From the UHGV virus genome UHGV-1369056: DNA of 39,253 nucleotides; one strand, 5' to 3'. The notes below the pieces were generated by a model. That model was not told the origin of the DNA, searched no databases, and saw only the letters and a program-made list of their open reading frames with translations. Position 1 is the first letter of the stretch. Each line of letters begins with the position of its first letter. Positions 1 through 25,818 of the stretch are shown here, in pieces. Both the position numbers and the translations under genes were made by a program. The DNA comes from a virus.

Positions 1-78
1 ACAACCATAAGTCACAACCATAAGTCACAACCATAAGTCACAACCATAAGTCACAACCATAAGTCACAACCATAAGAC
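1..78. repeat. Tandem array of a 13-bp unit ACAACCATAAGTC (5 perfect copies plus 1 imperfect copy); the array continues across the window boundary
   Basis: Direct reading: units at 1-13, 14-26, 27-39, 40-52, 53-65, variant acaaccataagac at 66-78. The last 13 nt of the window (ataaccataagtc) are a further near-copy. Confidence 0.9.
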
Positions 79-722
79 ACCAACGCCTACAGTCAAAGGC
101 CTACAGTTAATCGACACACAGCTATAGACTTAAGGTCAAAGACATGTTAGTCAAAGACTATATCCTCTTACACCATGGGGCCGACGATAGCTTACTCAAT
201 ATTATTTCAAATTACCTATTGACTACAGGTCTAGACTATGGCTTAATAGATTCCGTCAACACGACACGGCAACAACCGATAGTGAAGACGCCGGGTCATC
301 CCGGTTAAGTAGACAGCCTGATAAGTCATACGAACAACAGGCAGATGACAGAAGCAGTTGACAAGCTGTACCGACTTAAAGTAGTATGTACCACGTAGCA
401 AGATGGCGTAGGGATAGGAACCGAGAAACCTGCCCGAGACCAGCCAAGGATAAGGCACCAGCTGTGAGTCGAATTCGGTCACTCACCGCATAAAAGAATA
501 ACAGGTTGACAGCCTCCTTTAAAAGCTGTAAGCTGTACCACATCGAAACGACAGTGAGTCCCAACACTGAAACGGGATAGCACGGCGACGACAGCCAACG
601 CGAATGCTCTTTAACAATCTGGATAAACTCTTAATGTGCGCCGATAGCGACTAACTACAGGGTCTTTGAGTCTACATCTGAAGGCCTTGACTGATAGTCA
701 CTAACTTAAATAGGGTAACATT

Positions 723-899
723 ATGAAAATCATAGCGATGAACGAAGAACTGGGCGTAATCTGGTATACGGCTAACGACTATAAGTATCGCACTAAGCAT
801 GTGATAATCTACGGATTGTCTAAGACTGAGTGGGATAGCCGTGAGCAAGCGCAGGACGCGTTCAATAAGTGCCTGAACCATGCGTTCAATTGCCAGTGA
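723..899 (+). CDS. Hypothetical small early protein (58 aa, MKIIAMNEELGVIWYTANDYKYRT...)
   Basis: ATG at 723, TGA at 897-899, read by hand (below the 60-aa cutoff of the ORF track). Same strand as all other genes; preceded by a copy of the repeated early element tgatagtcactaac. Weak SD. Confidence 0.35.
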   Translation: MKIIAMNEELGVIWYTANDYKYRTKHVIIYGLSKTEWDSREQAQDAFNKCLNHAFNCQ

Positions 900-980
900 T
901 TAACTACAGGTCGTTAGACTCATAGCGGCCTGATTGATAGTCACTAACATACACACAATTAACTTTGAGAGGATATAAAT

Positions 981-1325
981 ATGGAACGTAACGCTAACGC
1001 ATACTATGACCTGCTGGCTGCAACCGTTGAGCTGTTCAATGAGCGTATTCAGTACGACGAAATAGCTGAAGGCGATGATTATTACGATGCGCTGCATGAA
1101 GTCGTAGACTATATGGTTCCGCACTATTACCACGAGATTTTCACGGTAATGGCTGCTGATGGTATAGACCACGAGTTTGAGGACTCTGGGCTGATGCCTG
1201 AAACCAAGGATGTAACGCGTATACTGCAAGCCCGCATCTATGAGGCGCTTTATAACGACGTGTCTAATAGCTCGGATGTGGTCTGGTTTGAGGATGAAGA
1301 GGCAGACGAGGAGGATTGCGAGTGA
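981..1325 (+). CDS. ocr: Ocr-like anti-restriction protein (T7 gp0.3 homologue), DNA mimic
   Basis: 114-aa acidic protein; the segment VPHYYHEIFTVMAADGIDHEFEDSGLMPETKDVTRILQARIYE closely matches T7 Ocr as recalled (VPHYY..IF.VMA.EGID.EFEDSGLMPDTKDV.RILQARIYE); acidic C-terminus; SD gagagg upstream. Confidence 0.9.
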   Translation: MERNANAYYDLLAATVELFNERIQYDEIAEGDDYYDALHEVVDYMVPHYYHEIFTVMAADGIDHEFEDSGLMPETKDVTRILQARIYEALYNDVSNSSDVVWFEDEEADEEDCE

Positions 1326-1482
1326 TAGTGACTTATGGTCTCTGCCAGCACCACGTCACCAACGCCCGGCTTATGGTCAAGACCGGGCAGTTAAACCACG
1401 ATGCGACTATGCGCCACCTGAAAGCGGTCTATGAGGGCCGCAAGCGTATACACGACAGCTTACACGATGAGGATAACCAACA

Positions 1483-1683
1483 ATGACACGCAACGATATA
1501 ATTGATAGACTTAAGTCCGTATATCTGGTAGGTGATGGGCCAATACGCATAACTGCCAAGAGCTATGAAGGCAACATACTAGCACCTGAGGGCACAGCAT
1601 ATCGGATATCATTTACCGACCTTATCACCTCCAAGCGTAGGACCGTTACGCTGTGGCCTAACACTGTAGGATTCCAAGGGTAA
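1483..1683 (+). CDS. Hypothetical early protein (66 aa)
   Basis: ORF in the early region, + strand, SD-like gaggat upstream; no recognisable motif. Confidence 0.4.
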   Translation: MTRNDIIDRLKSVYLVGDGPIRITAKSYEGNILAPEGTAYRISFTDLITSKRRTVTLWPNTVGFQG

Positions 1684-1689
1684 GCAGAA

Positions 1690-1815
1690 ATGTACCAGAT
1701 AACTTATAGCAGTGAACAGGCGTTCTACGATGGGTGCTACGAGATGATGAAGCGCGGGGCTTGCTACGTGGCTAATCACCATAGCTTGACCATAACGCTG
1801 ACAGGTGGATACTGA
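1690..1815 (+). CDS. Hypothetical small early protein (41 aa, MYQITYSSEQAFYDGCYEMMKRGACYVANHH...)
   Basis: Hand-read ORF, ATG 1690 to TGA 1813-1815; below the ORF-track cutoff; Cys/His-containing; weak SD. Confidence 0.25.
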   Translation: MYQITYSSEQAFYDGCYEMMKRGACYVANHHSLTITLTGGY

Positions 1816-1971
1816 GTGATAAACGAGAGGTCATCGACTGATAGGTGGCCTCAAAGATTATCACTTACATTGATAGGGGTTAACTATGAGTGTGGGATAT
1901 TTGGTATGCCTAGCGCCAGTTATCTGGATGATAGGTTATGGGATATACGATTGTATTAAACGGAAATCACT

Positions 1972-2169
1972 ATGAGTATCGAACTATTGATAGCCATAGG
2001 CTATGGACTTATCGCCTACATGCTGATGAGAGACATCAACAAGGCACGTAAAGTCTATAAATTCAACTATGCACGTCTGGGCCGCTGGACTGTACGCCAA
2101 CCTAATGGGCGATTCGCGCGTAACTTAGCGAACGTCTGGGATATAGCAACTCTTGGGAGCAAACTGTAA
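1972..2169 (+). CDS. Hypothetical early protein (65 aa) with hydrophobic N-terminus (possible membrane anchor)
   Basis: ORF on + strand; N-terminal LLIAIGYGLIAYML hydrophobic stretch; stop overlaps the next ORF start (TAATG). Confidence 0.4.
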   Translation: MSIELLIAIGYGLIAYMLMRDINKARKVYKFNYARLGRWTVRQPNGRFARNLANVWDIATLGSKL

Positions 2170-2495
2170 TGAACAAGTCATACGGGATTAATTTGGTACG
2201 CTCTATGGACGCAGAAATGAACATGTTAAGCCTACTGGCTACCGGGTATCGTCACGGAACGTCAAGTCACACCGCACGTCAACAGCAGGAGCGGGACCGT
2301 GTACTACAGGCACGACTCAGGGCAGAGGGCCATAAGTCCGAGCTGATGTGTCTGGCGTATGGTGGACGACCAATCACCGACGATGGTAAACTTCTGGTCT
2401 CAGGCTGGAAGGCGATAGACCAACGGTCAACCATCAAGCACACGACTCACGGTGACTTCAGTCATCTTCACGCTAACCCTCTGATATGCAAGTAA
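2169..2495 (+). CDS. Hypothetical early protein (108 aa), in the position T7 gene 0.7 occupies but not a protein kinase
   Basis: ORF directly upstream of the RNA polymerase gene; no kinase motifs and far too short for a gp0.7 homologue. Confidence 0.45.
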   Translation: MNKSYGINLVRSMDAEMNMLSLLATGYRHGTSSHTARQQQERDRVLQARLRAEGHKSELMCLAYGGRPITDDGKLLVSGWKAIDQRSTIKHTTHGDFSHLHANPLICK

Positions 2496-2500
2496 TTATG

Positions 2501-2523
2501 ACTTAACTATCACTATAGGACTC
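2501..2523 (+). promoter_or_regulatory. Phage RNAP promoter (-17..+6), ACTTAACTATCACTATAGGACTC
   Basis: Matches the 11-copy consensus cTAAACTATCACTATAGG; the CACTATAG core is identical to the T7 class III core; sits upstream of gene 1. Confidence 0.75.
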
Positions 2524-2592
2524 AAGGTCTAAGACTCCAAGTGAAAGACCAAAGAGACTTTAAGTGAAAGACTAATAACAAGGACTTTAAGT

Positions 2593-5274
2593 ATGAGCGT
2601 CATCTCTATTGAAAAACACGACTTCTCTGATGTGTCGAACGCCATTGAGCCGTTTAACCTGCTGGCTGACCACTACGGGCAAGACCTTGCAGTCAAACAG
2701 CTTCAGCTTGAGCACGAGGCATACACTGAAGGCGAGCGACGTTTCATCAAGAACCTTGAGCGCCAGACTGAGCGCGGGGAACTGGCAGACAATCAGGTCG
2801 CCAAGCCTTTGATGCAGACTCTGGTCCCTAAGATTGCGCAAGCCGTAAGGGAGTGGCATGAAGGGCCAGACGGGAAGCTGTCAACCTCTCGTCCTAGCGT
2901 GGCGTTCACCATGTTGAGCACTGAAGAGAAGGCCGTCAAGGACCGCTCTCTGCGCATCTCATGTGAGTCTGCTGCGGTTATCATACTGAAGGTCATACTC
3001 TCCAAGCTGGTCAAGCCTGAAGGGATACCGATTACACCGATGGCCTCCGCGATAGGTCGCACACTTGAGGACGAAATCCGCTTCGGCCGCATCCGTGACA
3101 AGGAGAAAGAGCACTTCAAGAAGGCGATAGCTGATAACCTGAATAAGCGGGCCGGGGCGTCCTACAAGAAAGCCTACATGCAAGCGGTCGAGGCATCCAT
3201 GCTGGAGCAAGGCCAACTGGAAGATGCGTGGGGGACTTGGAGTCCTACAGAGGCTGTCCACGTTGGCATCAAGATGCTTGAGATTGTCATCCAGTCAACA
3301 CAACTGGTCGAGCTTAAGCGGTACGGTGCTGGCAATGCAGCGGCTGACGTAGAGATGGTCCACCTGTCAGACTGCTGGGTCAAGAAGATGGCACAACGAG
3401 GATTCAGCCTTGCGGGTATCGCTCCAGTCTACCAGCCTTGCGTCGTTCCACCTAAGCCGTGGACTGGTGTCGTAGGCGGTGGGTACTGGGCCAAAGGTCG
3501 CAGACCGCTGCCCCTGATTCGCTTAGGGTCTAAGTCAGCGGTGGCACGTTATGAAGACGTATACATGCCTGAAGTCTATGACGCTGTGAATATCATCCAG
3601 AATACACCTTGGAAAGTGAACAAGAAGGTGCTGGACGTGGTGAACATGGTCGAGAAGTTGAACAACACACCTATTGATGACATCCCTCAGATGGAGCCAC
3701 TGAAGCCTGAAGACTATGCGGGTGAGACTGAAGAGGAACTCAAGGCATGGAAGAAGGCTGCTGCTGGTATCTACCGCCGAGAGAAGGCCCGGCAGTCACG
3801 TAGATTGTCACTGAGCTTTATCGTTAACCAAGCGAACAAGTTCTCTCAGTTCAAGGCCATCTGGTTTCCGTACAACATGGACTGGCGCGGTCGCGTCTAC
3901 GCTGTGCCGATGTTCAACCCTCAGGGTAACGACATGCAAAAGGGTCTCCTGACTCTGGCAGTCGGTAAGCCTATTGGTGCTGATGGTTTCAAATGGCTGA
4001 AGGTCCACGGTGCAAACTGTGCGGGTATTGATAAAGTAACCTTCGAGGAGCGCATCAAGTGGGTGGAAGATAACCACGACAACATCATGGCTACCGCTAA
4101 GGCACCGATGGACAGCATTGAGTGGTGGGGTAAGTTAGACTCTCCGTTCTGCTTCCTAGCGTTCTGCTTCGAGTATGCTGGCGTAATGCACCACGGTTTG
4201 TCTTACTCCTGCTCGCTGCCGATAGCTTTCGATGGGTCCTGCTCTGGGATTCAGCACTTCAGCGCGATGCTTCGTGACCACATCGGTGGGCATGCAGTAA
4301 ACCTAACGCCATCCGGTAAGGTCCAAGACATCTATCGCATTGTGTCTGACCGCATTGAGGAGGAACTCAAAGTCCTGCTGGTTAACGGTACGGACAACGA
4401 GATGGCAACTCACGAGGACAAGAAAACTGGTGAGATTACCGAGCGTCTCAAGCTGGGGACACGAGAGCTGGCCCGTCAGTGGCTGACCTACGGTATGTCA
4501 CGCAAGGTCACTAAGCGTTCGGTCATGACTCTGGCCTACGGGTCGAAAGAGTACGGCTTCGCAGACCAAGTATACGAGGACATCGTGATGCCAGCGATTG
4601 ACTCAGGGTCTGGCGCTATGTTCACTGAACCAAGCCAAGCGTCTCGCTTCATGGCTAAGATGATTTGGGAAGCTGTGAGTGTGACAGTAGTTGCTGCGGT
4701 TGACGCGATGAAGTGGCTTCAAGGTGCTGCCAAGCTGCTGGCTGCTGAGGTGAAGGACAAGAAGACTGGAGAAATCCTGAAGCCTTGTCTTCCGGTACAC
4801 TGGGTCACACCTGATGGGTTCCCGGTATGGCAGGAATACCGCAAGAAGGATACCACTCGTCTGAACCTGATGTTCTTAGGGTCATTCAACCTTCAGCCTA
4901 CAGTCAACAAAGGCACGAAGAAAGAGCTGGACAAGCACAAGCAGGAGTCAGGCATTAGCCCGAACTTCGTCCACTCACAAGATGGTAGCCACCTCCGAAA
5001 GACTGTAGTCCACACTCACCGCAAGTATGGCGTGATGTCATTCGCAGTGATTCACGATAGCTTCGGGACCATCCCGGCTGACGCTGAGTATCTGTTCCGT
5101 GGCGTCCGTGAGACGATGGTAGAGACTTACCGCGACAACGATGTGCTGCTTGACTTCTACGAGCAGTTTGAATACCAGCTTCACGAGAGCCAGCGCGACA
5201 AGTTGCCTGAGCTTCCGAAGAAAGGTAAACTGAATATCGAGGACATCTTGTCTTCAGACTTTGCATTCGCTTAA
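2593..5274 (+). CDS. 1: Single-subunit DNA-directed RNA polymerase (T7 gene 1 homologue)
   Basis: 893 aa; C-terminus ...HSQDGSHLRK...IHDSFGTIPADA...FAFA and many internal blocks are characteristic of T7-type RNAP; SD upstream. Confidence 0.98.
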   Translation: MSVISIEKHDFSDVSNAIEPFNLLADHYGQDLAVKQLQLEHEAYTEGERRFIKNLERQTERGELADNQVAKPLMQTLVPKIAQAVREWHEGPDGKLSTSRPSVAFTMLSTEEKAVKDRSLRISCESAAVIILKVILSKLVKPEGIPITPMASAIGRTLEDEIRFGRIRDKEKEHFKKAIADNLNKRAGASYKKAYMQAVEASMLEQGQLEDAWGTWSPTEAVHVGIKMLEIVIQSTQLVELKRYGAGNAAADVEMVHLSDCWVKKMAQRGFSLAGIAPVYQPCVVPPKPWTGVVGGGYWAKGRRPLPLIRLGSKSAVARYEDVYMPEVYDAVNIIQNTPWKVNKKVLDVVNMVEKLNNTPIDDIPQMEPLKPEDYAGETEEELKAWKKAAAGIYRREKARQSRRLSLSFIVNQANKFSQFKAIWFPYNMDWRGRVYAVPMFNPQGNDMQKGLLTLAVGKPIGADGFKWLKVHGANCAGIDKVTFEERIKWVEDNHDNIMATAKAPMDSIEWWGKLDSPFCFLAFCFEYAGVMHHGLSYSCSLPIAFDGSCSGIQHFSAMLRDHIGGHAVNLTPSGKVQDIYRIVSDRIEEELKVLLVNGTDNEMATHEDKKTGEITERLKLGTRELARQWLTYGMSRKVTKRSVMTLAYGSKEYGFADQVYEDIVMPAIDSGSGAMFTEPSQASRFMAKMIWEAVSVTVVAAVDAMKWLQGAAKLLAAEVKDKKTGEILKPCLPVHWVTPDGFPVWQEYRKKDTTRLNLMFLGSFNLQPTVNKGTKKELDKHKQESGISPNFVHSQDGSHLRKTVVHTHRKYGVMSFAVIHDSFGTIPADAEYLFRGVRETMVETYRDNDVLLDFYEQFEYQLHESQRDKLPELPKKGKLNIEDILSSDFAFA

Positions 5275-5289
5275 CAGCAGGAGAAGTAT

Positions 5290-5520
5290 ATGTCAATGAA
5301 ACTTGTAGCACACAACAAGGCATTCAACGATGGGTCAGGACGTTGCCATGTAGAGCTTACTTATAAGGATTTAGTCATTCTCCGCGAAAGATTACAAGCA
5401 GGTGTGACTGGGTGGATTCAACCTAACGAGTACAACCTTATAGCCTCGATTGATGAAGTGCTTAACGCGTGGAGGGAAGACGAGCGCACTCAATATCCGT
5501 CATTCCCTATGATTAGATAA
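5290..5520 (+). CDS. Hypothetical protein (76 aa), accessory gene between gene 1 and gene 1.1
   Basis: ORF with SD gcaggagaagt upstream; no T7 counterpart recalled at this position. Confidence 0.5.
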   Translation: MSMKLVAHNKAFNDGSGRCHVELTYKDLVILRERLQAGVTGWIQPNEYNLIASIDEVLNAWREDERTQYPSFPMIR

Positions 5521-5530
5521 GGAGAGAGTT

Positions 5531-5746
5531 ATGAATTTTGCACACAAGCAGGCTGGAGTTAAGGGCGGGACTCAAATCGTGACCGTAACAGAACACAACG
5601 GCAAGGGTCTGGTGAAGACCACTGTCATTCCTACCGAGATGTCAAAACAGCTTAACGTCCCATTCAAGACCCTCGTCTATCTTGTGGAATCCAGCCACGA
5701 GAAGTACCTGAAAGACGCAGTGTCCAAGCTGGAGCAGACCAAATGA
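5531..5746 (+). CDS. Hypothetical protein (71 aa), accessory gene between gene 1 and gene 1.1
   Basis: ORF with SD aaggagag upstream; unknown function. Confidence 0.5.
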   Translation: MNFAHKQAGVKGGTQIVTVTEHNGKGLVKTTVIPTEMSKQLNVPFKTLVYLVESSHEKYLKDAVSKLEQTK

Positions 5747-5820
5747 CACACCTACAGTTACTGGCCTTGTGGCTGGGAGCACTAGCAGTATTCACTTTAA
5801 TCCAACGCAGAAGAGGTTGA

Positions 5821-5843
5821 CCTAAACTATCACTATAGGATTA
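5821..5843 (+). promoter_or_regulatory. Phage RNAP promoter, CCTAAACTATCACTATAGGATTA
   Basis: Consensus match; upstream of gene 1.1 (as T7 phi1.1). Confidence 0.8.
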
Positions 5844-5890
5844 GACTCAAGGTCATGACTTAAAGTCGTGGCCTTCATGATTAACCCTAT
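5834..5890 (+). promoter_or_regulatory. RNase III-like processing stem-loop (copy A of 3)
   Basis: Upper stem aaggtcatgac/gtcgtggcctt (5849-5859 / 5865-5875, including G-U pairs) with loop ttaaa, flanked by lower stem tatagg/cctata. Shares the motif agactcaaggtcat...gtggcctt with copies at 12895 and 35630, with compensatory changes. Confidence 0.55.
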
Positions 5891-5914
5891 AACCTAAACA
5901 ACTGGAGCTACAAC

Positions 5915-6094
5915 ATGTATCAGAACACTATCAACTTCGAGCGCATCCGTGAACGTCAGAAGACTGAAGGCTACATTCCGAAGGGCCGCAAGCTGAACAA
6001 GACAAAGCGTGGAGGCGGTGTCAAAGGTGCTTTCCGTAACGCTGAAGGCAAAGACTCTATGGTCAACCAAGAGAAATACTTCGTAGGAGCATAA
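5915..6094 (+). CDS. 1.1: gp1.1-like small basic protein (59 aa)
   Basis: Hand-read ORF; contains KGRKLNKTKR, matching the T7 gp1.1 motif (GRKLNKTKR) as recalled; SD ctggagc upstream. Confidence 0.65.
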   Translation: MYQNTINFERIRERQKTEGYIPKGRKLNKTKRGGGVKGAFRNAEGKDSMVNQEKYFVGA

Positions 6095-6096
6095 AC

Positions 6097-6384
6097 ATGG
6101 GCATGTTTTCAAGAGCGCATAGCGGCAACCTGAACACTCTGCGTACAGCCATCCACAACTGGCAGACCGAGACGGAATACAATGCAGAGGTCAGCACTTG
6201 GTTTGACCCAGTGATGAACAGGCACTGCGTCCGGGTGGTTATAGTCCACAGCCATACGAAAGAGGTCCTAATCGAGAAGGACTTCACGGAGTACCCGAAT
6301 ATTCATGACGAAGACGTGCAGACCGTAGCGGTTGCCACTTGGTTTAACAAACAGTTCAACGACTACACTGGTCGATTCCTTTAA
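6097..6384 (+). CDS. 1.2: gp1.2-like protein (host dGTPase inhibitor homologue)
   Basis: 95 aa; N-terminus MGMFSRAHSGNL resembles T7 gp1.2 (MGRLYSGNL); position between 1.1 and ligase. Confidence 0.7.
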   Translation: MGMFSRAHSGNLNTLRTAIHNWQTETEYNAEVSTWFDPVMNRHCVRVVIVHSHTKEVLIEKDFTEYPNIHDEDVQTVAVATWFNKQFNDYTGRFL

Positions 6385-6401
6385 TTCTGGAGACATTAAC
6401 G

Positions 6402-7493
6402 ATGACAACTATCAAAACTAACCCGCACCGCGCTGTAGATTACTCTGAGTCTGGCGTTAAGAAGGCGCTGGCTGCTGCCGGGTCTCTGGAAGCTGAAGTT
6501 AAGTATGACGGTGTGCGGTTGAATATTCCGGTCTTCCCTGATGGGCGAACTGAATGGTTAAGCCGTGAGTCAAAGACGCTTCCGGCCTTAGACCATTTGT
6601 CAACAGTTGGTCAGGACATCGGAGCATGCCGTGCGTCCGACTGGCGATGGTTCCTGAAGCAAGCAGGACATGAAGTCTCTGGCCTGATGATTGACGGAGA
6701 GGTGATGGTCAAGGGTGTAGACTTCAACACATCCTCAGGTCTTATCCGCACCATGTGGTCTGACCGCAAGAACTACAAGTGGAACATTAACCCTAAGGCC
6801 GATATGGAGACCAAGAAGTCTAACAAGGTTCCATTCCAGATTAGCCCTGAGTTCCTACAAGTGGTCGTCTACGGGGTCATCGACCTTAACGTCATCAACG
6901 ACCCGAAAGCCGAAGGTCCCATCCATAGCGTCACTCGCCTGAAGGCCGAAGCTATTGTCCCTCTCCTCCAGAAATACTTCCCGGAAATCGACTGGGTTCT
7001 GTCTGAGTCTCACACGGTCTATGACCTTGAGTCGCTCAACTCCCTGTACGAACAGAAGCGTCTGGAAGGACATGAGGGTCTGGTAGTCAAGGACCCGCTG
7101 GGTAAATACAAGCGTGGCAAGAAGTCTGGCATGTGGAAAATGAAGCCTGAGGAGACCATCGACGGGACCGTGTGTGGCCTCGTGTGGGGGACTCCTGGTA
7201 AGGCGAACGAAGGTAAGGTGATTGGCTTCGAGGTGCTGCTTGAGGATGGCATGGTGGTTAACGCCTGTGGTCTGACTGAAGAACAGAAGGACGAGTTCAC
7301 AGCTAAGGTTAAACAGACCATTAGCTTCCGTGAGGACTTTGAAGACTTCGGGTCTGAACCTGAAGACACCAACCCCTACCACGGCTGGCAGTGTGAAGTC
7401 CTATTCATGGAGCGGTTCCCGGATGGCTCACTCCGTCATCCCAGCTTCAAGTGCTGGCGTGGAACGGAAGACAATCCAACCGTTAAGAGCTAA
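6402..7493 (+). CDS. 1.3: ATP-dependent DNA ligase (T7 gene 1.3 homologue)
   Basis: 363 aa; adenylation lysine motif EVKYDGVR; blocks KGVDFNTSSGL, EGHEGLVVKDP, KRGKKSGMWKMKPE, DGSLRHPSF and GTEDNP match T7 ligase. Confidence 0.96.
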   Translation: MTTIKTNPHRAVDYSESGVKKALAAAGSLEAEVKYDGVRLNIPVFPDGRTEWLSRESKTLPALDHLSTVGQDIGACRASDWRWFLKQAGHEVSGLMIDGEVMVKGVDFNTSSGLIRTMWSDRKNYKWNINPKADMETKKSNKVPFQISPEFLQVVVYGVIDLNVINDPKAEGPIHSVTRLKAEAIVPLLQKYFPEIDWVLSESHTVYDLESLNSLYEQKRLEGHEGLVVKDPLGKYKRGKKSGMWKMKPEETIDGTVCGLVWGTPGKANEGKVIGFEVLLEDGMVVNACGLTEEQKDEFTAKVKQTISFREDFEDFGSEPEDTNPYHGWQCEVLFMERFPDGSLRHPSFKCWRGTEDNPTVKS

Positions 7494-7503
7494 CTAAACG
7501 TCA

Positions 7504-7540
7504 ACCCAGTGGTCTTCGGACTGCTGGGTTTCTTTGCTTT
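7504..7540 (+). terminator. Intrinsic terminator (early TE analogue) with UUCG tetraloop
   Basis: 11-bp stem acccagtggtc/gactgctgggt with loop ttcg, followed by ttctttgcttt; located just after the ligase gene, where T7 TE lies. Confidence 0.7.
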
Positions 7541-7576
7541 GTGCTAGCTAGCTATCGTCTGGGCCACCAGCCTGAC

Positions 7577-7599
7577 CCTAAGCTATCACTATAGGACAA
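7577..7599 (+). promoter_or_regulatory. Phage RNAP promoter, CCTAAGCTATCACTATAGGACAA
   Basis: Consensus match (one deviation, G at -12); upstream of gene 1.6. Confidence 0.7.
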
Positions 7600-7626
7600 C
7601 CATAACTTCGACCTAAGGAGGCCGAC

Positions 7627-7887
7627 ATGTTTAAGAACTTAATGTTCAATCGTTATACCAGTACATTCCACCTGTCTAACAACCCATTCGCTTGCATTGA
7701 GCGCAACGAGAAGCTGGGCTACTTCGGGAAGGCCGTTAAGCTGTCACCTACAGTCTTCGCTCTGATTACTCCGGGTAAAGCTGAAGAGGCTCGCCAGAAG
7801 CGTGAGACCAACGTACCCGTGGTCTACACTAAATGGCCTCGTGTTCGTCTGTTCGTTGAGTTCGTGAAGGAGGTGGTCAATGATTAA
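7627..7887 (+). CDS. 1.6: gp1.6-like protein (86 aa)
   Basis: Position and size equivalent to T7 gene 1.6; strong SD aaggagg; weak similarity only. Confidence 0.55.
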   Translation: MFKNLMFNRYTSTFHLSNNPFACIERNEKLGYFGKAVKLSPTVFALITPGKAEEARQKRETNVPVVYTKWPRVRLFVEFVKEVVND

Positions 7888-25768: not shown

Positions 25769-25818
25769 AAGGGCCTATAGATTTACCTTAACTATCACTA
25801 TAGGGACTATAGGCCCTT
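25769..25818 (+). promoter_or_regulatory. 12-bp perfect inverted repeat (aagggcctatag / ctataggccctt) bracketing a phage promoter
   Basis: Arms at 25769-25780 and 25807-25818; the promoter core lies in the ~26-nt loop; only read-through transcripts from upstream would contain both arms. Confidence 0.5.
25786..25808 (+). promoter_or_regulatory. Phage RNAP promoter, CCTTAACTATCACTATAGGGACT
   Basis: Consensus match; upstream of gene 13 (as T7 phi13). Confidence 0.8.

Follow-up and report, generated by a model that had tools for sequence, protein, structure and literature searches.

In phage T7, the DNA between the RNA polymerase gene (gene 1) and gene 1.1 (positions 5823–6006) contains only two promoters: gene 1 ends at 5822, phi1.1A lies at 5848, phi1.1B at 5923, and gene 1.1 starts at 6007. 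The virus genome analyzed here, a stretch of 39,253 nucleotides referred to below as the window, raises the question of what occupies the same place in a related phage. The first-pass annotation had reported two accessory ORFs of 76 and 71 aa in this interval, which it rightly described as intergenic in T7. The window was matched to Kayfunavirus (K1F/EcoDS1-like, Studiervirinae), a group in the T7 family: a query of 751 bases around the two ORFs matched 217 phage records, the best of them Kayfunavirus at 92–96% identity. The cultured phages closest to the window are YZ1 and ST31 (∼95% identity over a 22-kb stretch). The features of the locus, in window coordinates, are as follows.

2502–2519, + strand: promoter-like 18-mer for the phage RNA polymerase, CTTAACTATCACTATAGG, just upstream of gene 1
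2593–5274, + strand: gene 1, T7-type RNA polymerase, 893 aa (annotated as RNA polymerase in relatives)
5280–5283, + strand: GGAG ribosome-binding site of ORF-A, 6 nt before the ATG (sequence, junction comparison)
5290–5520, + strand: ORF-A, 76 aa, 8.8 kDa, pI ∼6, PHROG 28104 (conservation, dN/dS, codon score)
5521–5524, + strand: GGAG ribosome-binding site of ORF-B, 6 nt before the ATG (sequence, junction comparison)
5531–5746, + strand: ORF-B, 71 aa, 7.9 kDa, pI 9.5, PHROG 8082 (conservation, dN/dS, codon score)
5743–5820, + strand: ORF-C, 25 aa, MTHLQLLALWLGALAVFTLIQRRRG (conservation, pN/pS, hydrophobic core with mean Kyte-Doolittle ∼2.2)
5822–5839, + strand: phage promoter, equivalent of phi1.1 in T3 and T7 and 3' boundary of the putative module (perfect consensus match)
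5834–5891, + strand: irregular hairpin resembling R1.1 (alignment with T3 R1.1, folding z-score)
5915–6094, + strand: true homologue of T7 gene 1.1, 59 aa (Pfam Phage_1_1, E 2.6e-10)
6097–6384: gp1.2, 95-aa form
6402–7493: ligase gene
7503–7530, + strand: TE-like intrinsic terminator that closes the early transcription unit (12-bp stem, then a T run)

The genes flanking this list gave two observations of their own. Upstream of gene 1 (window positions 1–2592) the longest ORF is at most 114 aa, so the phage has no gene sized like the T7 0.7 protein kinase; the nearest Klebsiella relatives, unlike the window, do carry a gene of that size. Downstream, the genus seems to have two or more widely differing forms of gp1.2, the dGTPase inhibitor: the 95-aa form of the window had a tblastn match in only 9 of 27 loci, and the others carry genes of 82–87 aa at that place.

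The coordinates of the 76- and 71-aa ORFs proved exact, and the good ribosome-binding sites claimed for them are the two GGAG motifs, that of ORF-B directly abutting the ORF-A stop codon (TAAGGAG). Their length by itself proves nothing, because chance ORFs of similar size are abundant; the ORF list of the window has numerous off-frame ORFs of 60–120 aa inside gene 1. The coding frames were distinguished by their pattern of substitution. By the Nei-Gojobori method, the median dN/dS was 0.10 across 5 informative close pairs for ORF-A and 0.17 across 303 pairs for ORF-B, with values of 1.1–1.8 in the two other frames, and the codon log-likelihood of both was positive in frame 0 only. The first-pass annotation had been prepared to drop its ORFs had they lacked relatives and shown a codon usage or ribosome-binding site unsuited to translation; what was found is conservation in 40 records for ORF-A and 220 for ORF-B, together with the frame-0 codon signal. 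Based on these sequence comparisons, ORF-A and ORF-B are real conserved genes under in-frame purifying selection. They are not new to the databases either, since both are already recorded as hypothetical proteins in EcoDS1, K1F, and dozens of other GenBank records.

An alternative is that the ORFs are accidental frames in a non-coding region of replication origins and promoters, as the equivalent T7 interval is non-coding and bears origin promoters, and frames this long arise frequently by chance. The data of the present analysis contradict it. Purifying selection is frame-specific in ORF-A, ORF-B, and ORF-C alike, the peptides are kept across 40–50% amino-acid divergence where synonymous sites are saturated, a strong ribosome-binding site precedes each ORF, and not a single phage promoter occurs in 5274–5822. 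We regard an accidental origin as vanishingly improbable.

The description of the interval as two ORFs was accurate for the two it named; it overlooked a third gene. Conservation is striking in the 75 bases that separate ORF-B from the promoter, and these encode ORF-C. Its start codon shares bases with the stop codon of ORF-B (AATGA) and has a GGAG 8 nt upstream. Every one of the 27 systematically compared loci has the gene, as do seven others; one locus, L033, stops before the site. Its pN/pS was 0.28–0.30 in frame against 0.9–1.2 off-frame, and in the most divergent loci, where the nucleotides differ widely, the peptide retains a hydrophobic helix followed by QRRRG, as in MSDSLWLVIWLALLVVYIIRQRRRG and VTDNQLWLTLWSAFLITFIVFQRRRG. 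The overlap with ORF-B is ATGA (or GTGA) in every locus except L026, where it is 8 nt. All alleles share a 17-residue hydrophobic core (mean Kyte-Doolittle 1.9–2.3) ahead of the QRRRG, so that by sequence ORF-C has the spanning hydrophobic stretch and charged flank expected of a single-pass membrane peptide, and its insertion into the membrane is predicted with fair confidence. At its 3' end, the last codons double as the ribosome-binding site of a gp1.05-type gene where that gene is present and otherwise abut the promoter. No equivalent was found in T7, T3, or a Klebsiella relative.

ORF-C has escaped nearly all annotations. One record was found that includes it, Escherichia phage GA2A, in which it is gp10 (YP_009324944.1); it is unannotated in nine other annotated records. 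The 25-aa GA2A protein is exactly the second ORF-C allele, MTDLKWLALWLAFLAVYTLIQRRRG, and differs from that of the window at 6 of 25 residues (positions 3, 5, 6, 12, 13, and 17). Elsewhere the region has attracted some doubtful labels. In PM129_026 (L038 870–986), a 39-aa CDS has been called across the phi1.1 promoter in a frame that differs from that of ORF-C, probably an annotation error, and in the SHAK phages (OR594184/OR594182) labels such as ‘nucleotide kinase’ and ‘RNA polymerase inhibitor’ cover ORF-A and ORF-B and seem to have been displaced from genes elsewhere.

The first-pass annotation had proposed comparing the interval across relatives and had called both of its ORFs accessory. 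The comparison separated them: ORF-B was constant, being present in 27 of 27 loci, and ORF-A was optional. A gene 1 of the Kayfunavirus type (at least 80% nucleotide identity) is carried by 223 records, and ORF-B was detected in 220, with matches reaching down to 42% amino-acid identity. Where ORF-A is absent, ORF-B starts 11–18 nt past the gene 1 stop codon. From 1.84 billion cluster representatives, a full profile-HMM scan recovered just 7 small-protein clusters, and two divergent ones that were traced lie directly after a T7-type polymerase gene. ORF-B was not found in T7, T3, or the nearest Klebsiella phages. Because it is near-universal after gene 1 within the genus and missing from those phages, ORF-B is, on the sequence record, a core and signature gene of the genus. 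The presence and absence among relatives that mark an accessory gene in a hotspot are thus not seen for it. The family corresponds to PHROG 8082, which was matched by the window protein (E 2.6e-41, residues 1–66 of the 66-position profile) and by all 16 divergent members. Identity is 76–99% to close relatives and 42–53% to distant ones; the window has a 71-aa form, and in many relatives the protein is 66 aa long and its C-terminal helix differs.

The first gene after gene 1 in several well-known phages belongs to this family, namely K1F gp1.1 (YP_424917), EcoDS1 ‘gp1.1’ (YP_002003743), and SH4 gp8. Taken at face value, the label carried in K1F, EcoDS1, and Dev2, and in notes derived from K1F, would make ORF-B the homologue of T7 gene 1.1. 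The Pfam family Phage_1_1 (PF08200), however, fits the 59-aa protein encoded at 5915–6094 (41 bits against a cut-off of 21, E 2.6e-10), and members of the ORF-B family gave no match to it even at E up to 10. EcoDS1 in fact has two genes, both called 1.1. The family test refutes the homology, the chance of which we put at practically nil: ‘gp1.1’ on ORF-B is a positional misnomer, and the real gp1.1 homologue lies downstream. ORF-A likewise had no match to PF08200 at E up to 1, nor its family members at E up to 10.

One genome departs from this pattern. In L037 (3501–3779; Logan SRR31227532, an apparently complete 39-kb contig), a deletion has fused ORF-A to ORF-B in frame, joining ORF-A codons 1–65 to the last ORF-B codons, with a TGA-to-TGC change allowing read-through. 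The junction lies at a 5-nt ACGAG repeat (microhomology); about 57 ORF-B codons are lost, and ORF-C is intact. L037 is either a viable phage lacking ORF-B or an assembly artefact. If it is no artefact, ORF-B may be dispensable under some conditions, which sits uneasily with its near-universal presence.

For ORF-A, the term accessory was well chosen. At an amino-acid identity of at least 87%, the gene was found in the records of 40 cultured phages, corresponding to ∼18% of genomes (40 of ∼220), and always in the same slot between gene 1 and ORF-B. At least three alleles exist: the window type, a type 46–51% identical to it (P0130–P0133, L006), and an 86-aa form that is 38% identical and was joined to the family by hhalign with a probability of 98%. 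Between the window and L006, ORF-A is 46% identical and the polymerase C-terminus and ORF-B are 92–93% identical, and among relatives the flanks of the slot are 92–100% identical. The composition of ORF-A is also atypical, with a GC3 of 0.45 compared with ∼0.64 in gene 1, ORF-B, and ligase, and a codon score lower than those of all 20 reference genes. Patchy presence, divergent alleles, and atypical composition together are what is expected of an accessory gene in a hotspot. The cassette junction is clean: it reads TAAcaggagagagttATG in phages without ORF-A and TAAcagcaggagaagtatATG...TAAggagagagttATG in phages with it, where the ribosome-binding site occurs twice. Searches of GTDB genomes, IMG/VR, and JGI metagenomes did not find ORF-A outside this slot or in bacteria. 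The window protein matched PHROG 28104 (E 6.6e-53, residues 1–76 of 76), as did 7 of 7 ORF-A members, the 86-aa form included. The EcoDS1 ‘unknown product’ (YP_002003742), also of PHROG 28104, occupies the same slot with 92% identity. ORF-A and ORF-B were also considered as paralogues, which was rejected at an hhalign probability of 0.1%.

The position of the genes relative to the transcription signals was examined across the window, where 11 matches to the phage promoter were found against 0.04 expected by chance. None lies between 5274 and 5822, confirming that the ORFs precede the first downstream phage promoter and distinguishing the window from T3 and T7, in which a phage promoter directly follows gene 1. 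The equivalent of the 5822–5839 site is annotated as a promoter in the ASO2B record. No terminator-like site was found between gene 1 and the 5822 promoter, and a TE-like terminator follows ligase, at the position of TE in T7 and T3; early transcripts made by the host polymerase should therefore cover the ORFs. The earlier expectation of early transcription thus stands, although probably not as a purely early program. The 18-mer at 2502–2519 has a single mismatch to the consensus of the window's own promoters, and the identical sequence recurs at 25787 and 38450. Its place just before gene 1 implies that the polymerase gene is transcribed by its own product. A promoter element before gene 1 is kept in relatives, with variable bases from −4 to +2 (TAAAGG, TTTAGG, TATCGA). 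Judged from these signals, the phage polymerase probably also transcribes gene 1 and ORF-A, ORF-B, and ORF-C, and we infer that the three are cistrons of the gene 1 message. A ‘K1B4’ transcriptome paper contains neither ‘Kayfunavirus’ nor ‘RNA polymerase’ and gives no sign of concerning Kayfunavirus.

This message likely ends in a processing site. The hairpin at 5834–5891 (−22.8 kcal/mol, z-score −5.3) aligns with the annotated R1.1 of T3, which folds alike (z-score −4.1), and as a homologous irregular hairpin directly after phi1.1 it can be placed by sequence among the R1.1 RNase III sites. No U run follows it, so it is not an intrinsic terminator. We conclude that 5834–5891 is likely the 3' processing site of the gene 1/ORF-A/ORF-B/ORF-C message and that the rho-independent ‘terminator’ label on the hairpin in ASO2B (L003 2151–2187) is probably wrong. 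An RNase III-like structure upstream of gene 1 was not supported (z-score −0.35), and an Rfam scan of 2300–7700 returned no match.

What the proteins might do was approached by homology and structure searches, as the first-pass annotation had suggested. They placed ORF-A and ORF-B in their own PHROG families and no others, and gave no significant match to characterized proteins. Scans against Pfam, NCBIfam, and PADLOC, made with both ORFs and with divergent family members (16 for ORF-B, 7 for ORF-A), returned nothing significant, and searches of PDB sequences with profiles and single members matched neither, in agreement with the reported lack of recognizable motifs. Judging by their supplements, the accessory-gene screens of Silas et al. 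did not include ORF-A or ORF-B.

The AF2 model of ORF-B (pLDDT 76) has three beta strands followed by helices at residues 35–41, 45–53, and 57–69, and the pI is 9.3–10.3 across all variants. Foldseek found no match to this model with E below 0.06 in the PDB or BFVD. Among the Foldseek results for the ORF-B and ORF-A models, the PC4-like, Pur-alpha, and AcrIF24 matches, like those to Tad1 described below, were non-significant and serve as leads only. Nucleic-acid binding by ORF-B is in our view possible, at something short of an even chance. A more specific proposal is that ORF-B is a small helix-turn-helix (HTH) DNA-binding regulator, like Cro or an anti-CRISPR-associated (Aca) repressor, which would be made together with the polymerase and tune the gene 1 operon or host and early promoters, with the variable ORF-A as a regulated accessory gene. 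By eye, residues 34–53 have the classic HTH spacing, clearest in divergent members (AKQVGLTQKELVQYV), and the helices at 35–41 and 45–53 of the model are separated by a 3-residue turn. Two family members weakly match Pfam HTH_17 (E 0.019) and HTH_50 (E 0.024) in the same region, every variant is basic, and a conserved gene adjoining variable small ones recalls acr-aca loci. These Pfam matches are, however, far under the family cut-offs (15 bits against 27; best E ∼0.02), so that ORF-B does not qualify as a member of an HTH family, and the HTH_17 match falls on the tail of the model rather than its start. Not one HTH protein appeared in the Foldseek searches of PDB and BFVD or in the PDB sequence searches. 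Moreover, the module lacks a promoter of its own to regulate, and ORF-B is found where ORF-A is lacking, in ∼80% of genomes. A regulator of this kind is accordingly an unlikely identity for ORF-B.

The model of ORF-A is of low confidence (pLDDT 64.6), with a disordered N-terminus, a short hairpin, and a two-helix hairpin, and Foldseek found no match to it in the PDB with E below 0.06. Among the non-significant matches one protein recurs. Tad1, the Thoeris anti-defense sponge, made up 7 of the 8 best matches and 12 of the top 30, with probabilities up to 0.77 and TM-scores up to 0.53 on the query; the modeled likeness is weak, a beta element followed by two long helices. ORF-A would then be a counter-defense protein of the Tad1 type, a small oligomeric sponge for an immune signaling nucleotide, and its patchiness, divergent alleles, and foreign-looking codon usage are typical counter-defense traits. 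The matches nevertheless have E values of 0.6–6 and rmsd of 4.5–8.8 Å on a query model that is itself uncertain, ORF-A is ∼40–55 residues shorter than Tad1 chains (115–131 residues), and it has neither a sequence relationship to Tad1 nor sequence similarity to any Pfam family. Many of the remaining fold matches are generic helical hairpins. The data thus do not place ORF-A in the Tad1 fold or sequence family, and we hold this origin to be very unlikely. A counter-defense or host-range role for ORF-A in the broader sense is a tentative suggestion, less likely than not.

The constant overlap of ORF-B and ORF-C invites yet another reading, in which the two form a membrane pair: ORF-C would be a toxic or depolarizing peptide or an exclusion factor, likened to type I toxins or small phage immunity proteins, and ORF-B its partner or modulator. 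The overlap is conserved and the pair co-conserved genus-wide, ORF-C resembles known small membrane peptides in size and shape, and it is intact in the natural ORF-B deletion. That same contig, in which ORF-C survives without ORF-B, argues against a strict toxin-antidote dependence, and the 3' end of ORF-C is constrained in addition as a gp1.05 ribosome-binding site or promoter flank. We consider such a pair improbable. Equally a long shot is the more ambitious proposal that ORF-B and ORF-C are an unrecognized genus-specific module, a basic and possibly DNA-binding protein translationally coupled to a 25-residue membrane peptide and produced along with the phage RNA polymerase, with ORF-A as a new counter-defense family. 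Were it true, the ORF-B/ORF-C module might, for instance, anchor phage DNA or transcription at the membrane, or work there against the host.

The explanation we favor, and consider likely as a whole, is that three small protein-coding genes make up a lineage-specific module in the stretch from gene 1 to phi1.1, share the polymerase message, and encode putative small host-directed proteins. ORF-A, ORF-B, and ORF-C would be expressed from that message, by the host polymerase early and probably by the phage polymerase as well, and the message would then be trimmed at R1.1. Recombination at the ribosome-binding site that immediately follows the stop codon of gene 1 may add and remove the ORF-A cassette, and ORF-B and ORF-C would represent a fixed pair in all K1F-like phages, translationally coupled through the ATGA overlap. 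Conservation, distribution, and transcriptional setting of the three genes have been established above. As for their function, we infer a host-directed binder role because of their size, timing, lack of enzymatic motifs, and the precedent of the T7 class I proteins. All three may be stoichiometric binders rather than enzymes, re-programming or disarming the host soon after infection, with ORF-A as a candidate strain-specific host-range or counter-defense factor, ORF-B as a putative nucleic-acid binder, and ORF-C presumably inserted into the inner membrane.

Much of this is routine, since the families of ORF-A and ORF-B are already in GenBank and PHROGs, and the mostly unannotated ORF-C and its coupling to ORF-B are only modestly new. 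The useful outcomes are the correction of the ‘gp1.1’ misnomer, the probable reassignment of ‘terminators’ of the ASO2B type as RNase III sites, and the recovery of a gene that annotations have missed. Phage-therapy work on capsulated E. coli makes use of K1F-like phages, and the distinction between core early genes (ORF-B, ORF-C) and strain-specific ones (ORF-A, gp1.05) could have practical value once a phenotype is found.

Among known systems, T3 offers a parallel in position. Its gene 1.05 (Pfam PF25755) occupies the same interval between gene 1 and the phi1.1 promoter with R1.1, which in T7 and T3 is the primary-origin interval. ORF-A, ORF-B, and ORF-C are unrelated to its product, and PF25755 matched neither ORF-A nor ORF-B. 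Genes of the gp1.05 type (149–164 aa) do occur in the genus as a second optional cassette between ORF-C and the promoter, in 15 of 27 loci (for example L001 2126–2596); this cassette is missing from the window and varies independently of ORF-A. A parallel in kind is found in T7, whose class I proteins gp0.4, gp0.6, gp1.2, and gp2 are small early proteins of host takeover. They have no homology to the ORFs described here, and the likeness, a functional analogy drawn from established T7 biology, is one of resemblance only: in their size (5–10 kDa), early expression, freedom from enzymatic motifs, and restriction to a lineage, they resemble the small proteins predicted from the message of this phage's polymerase.
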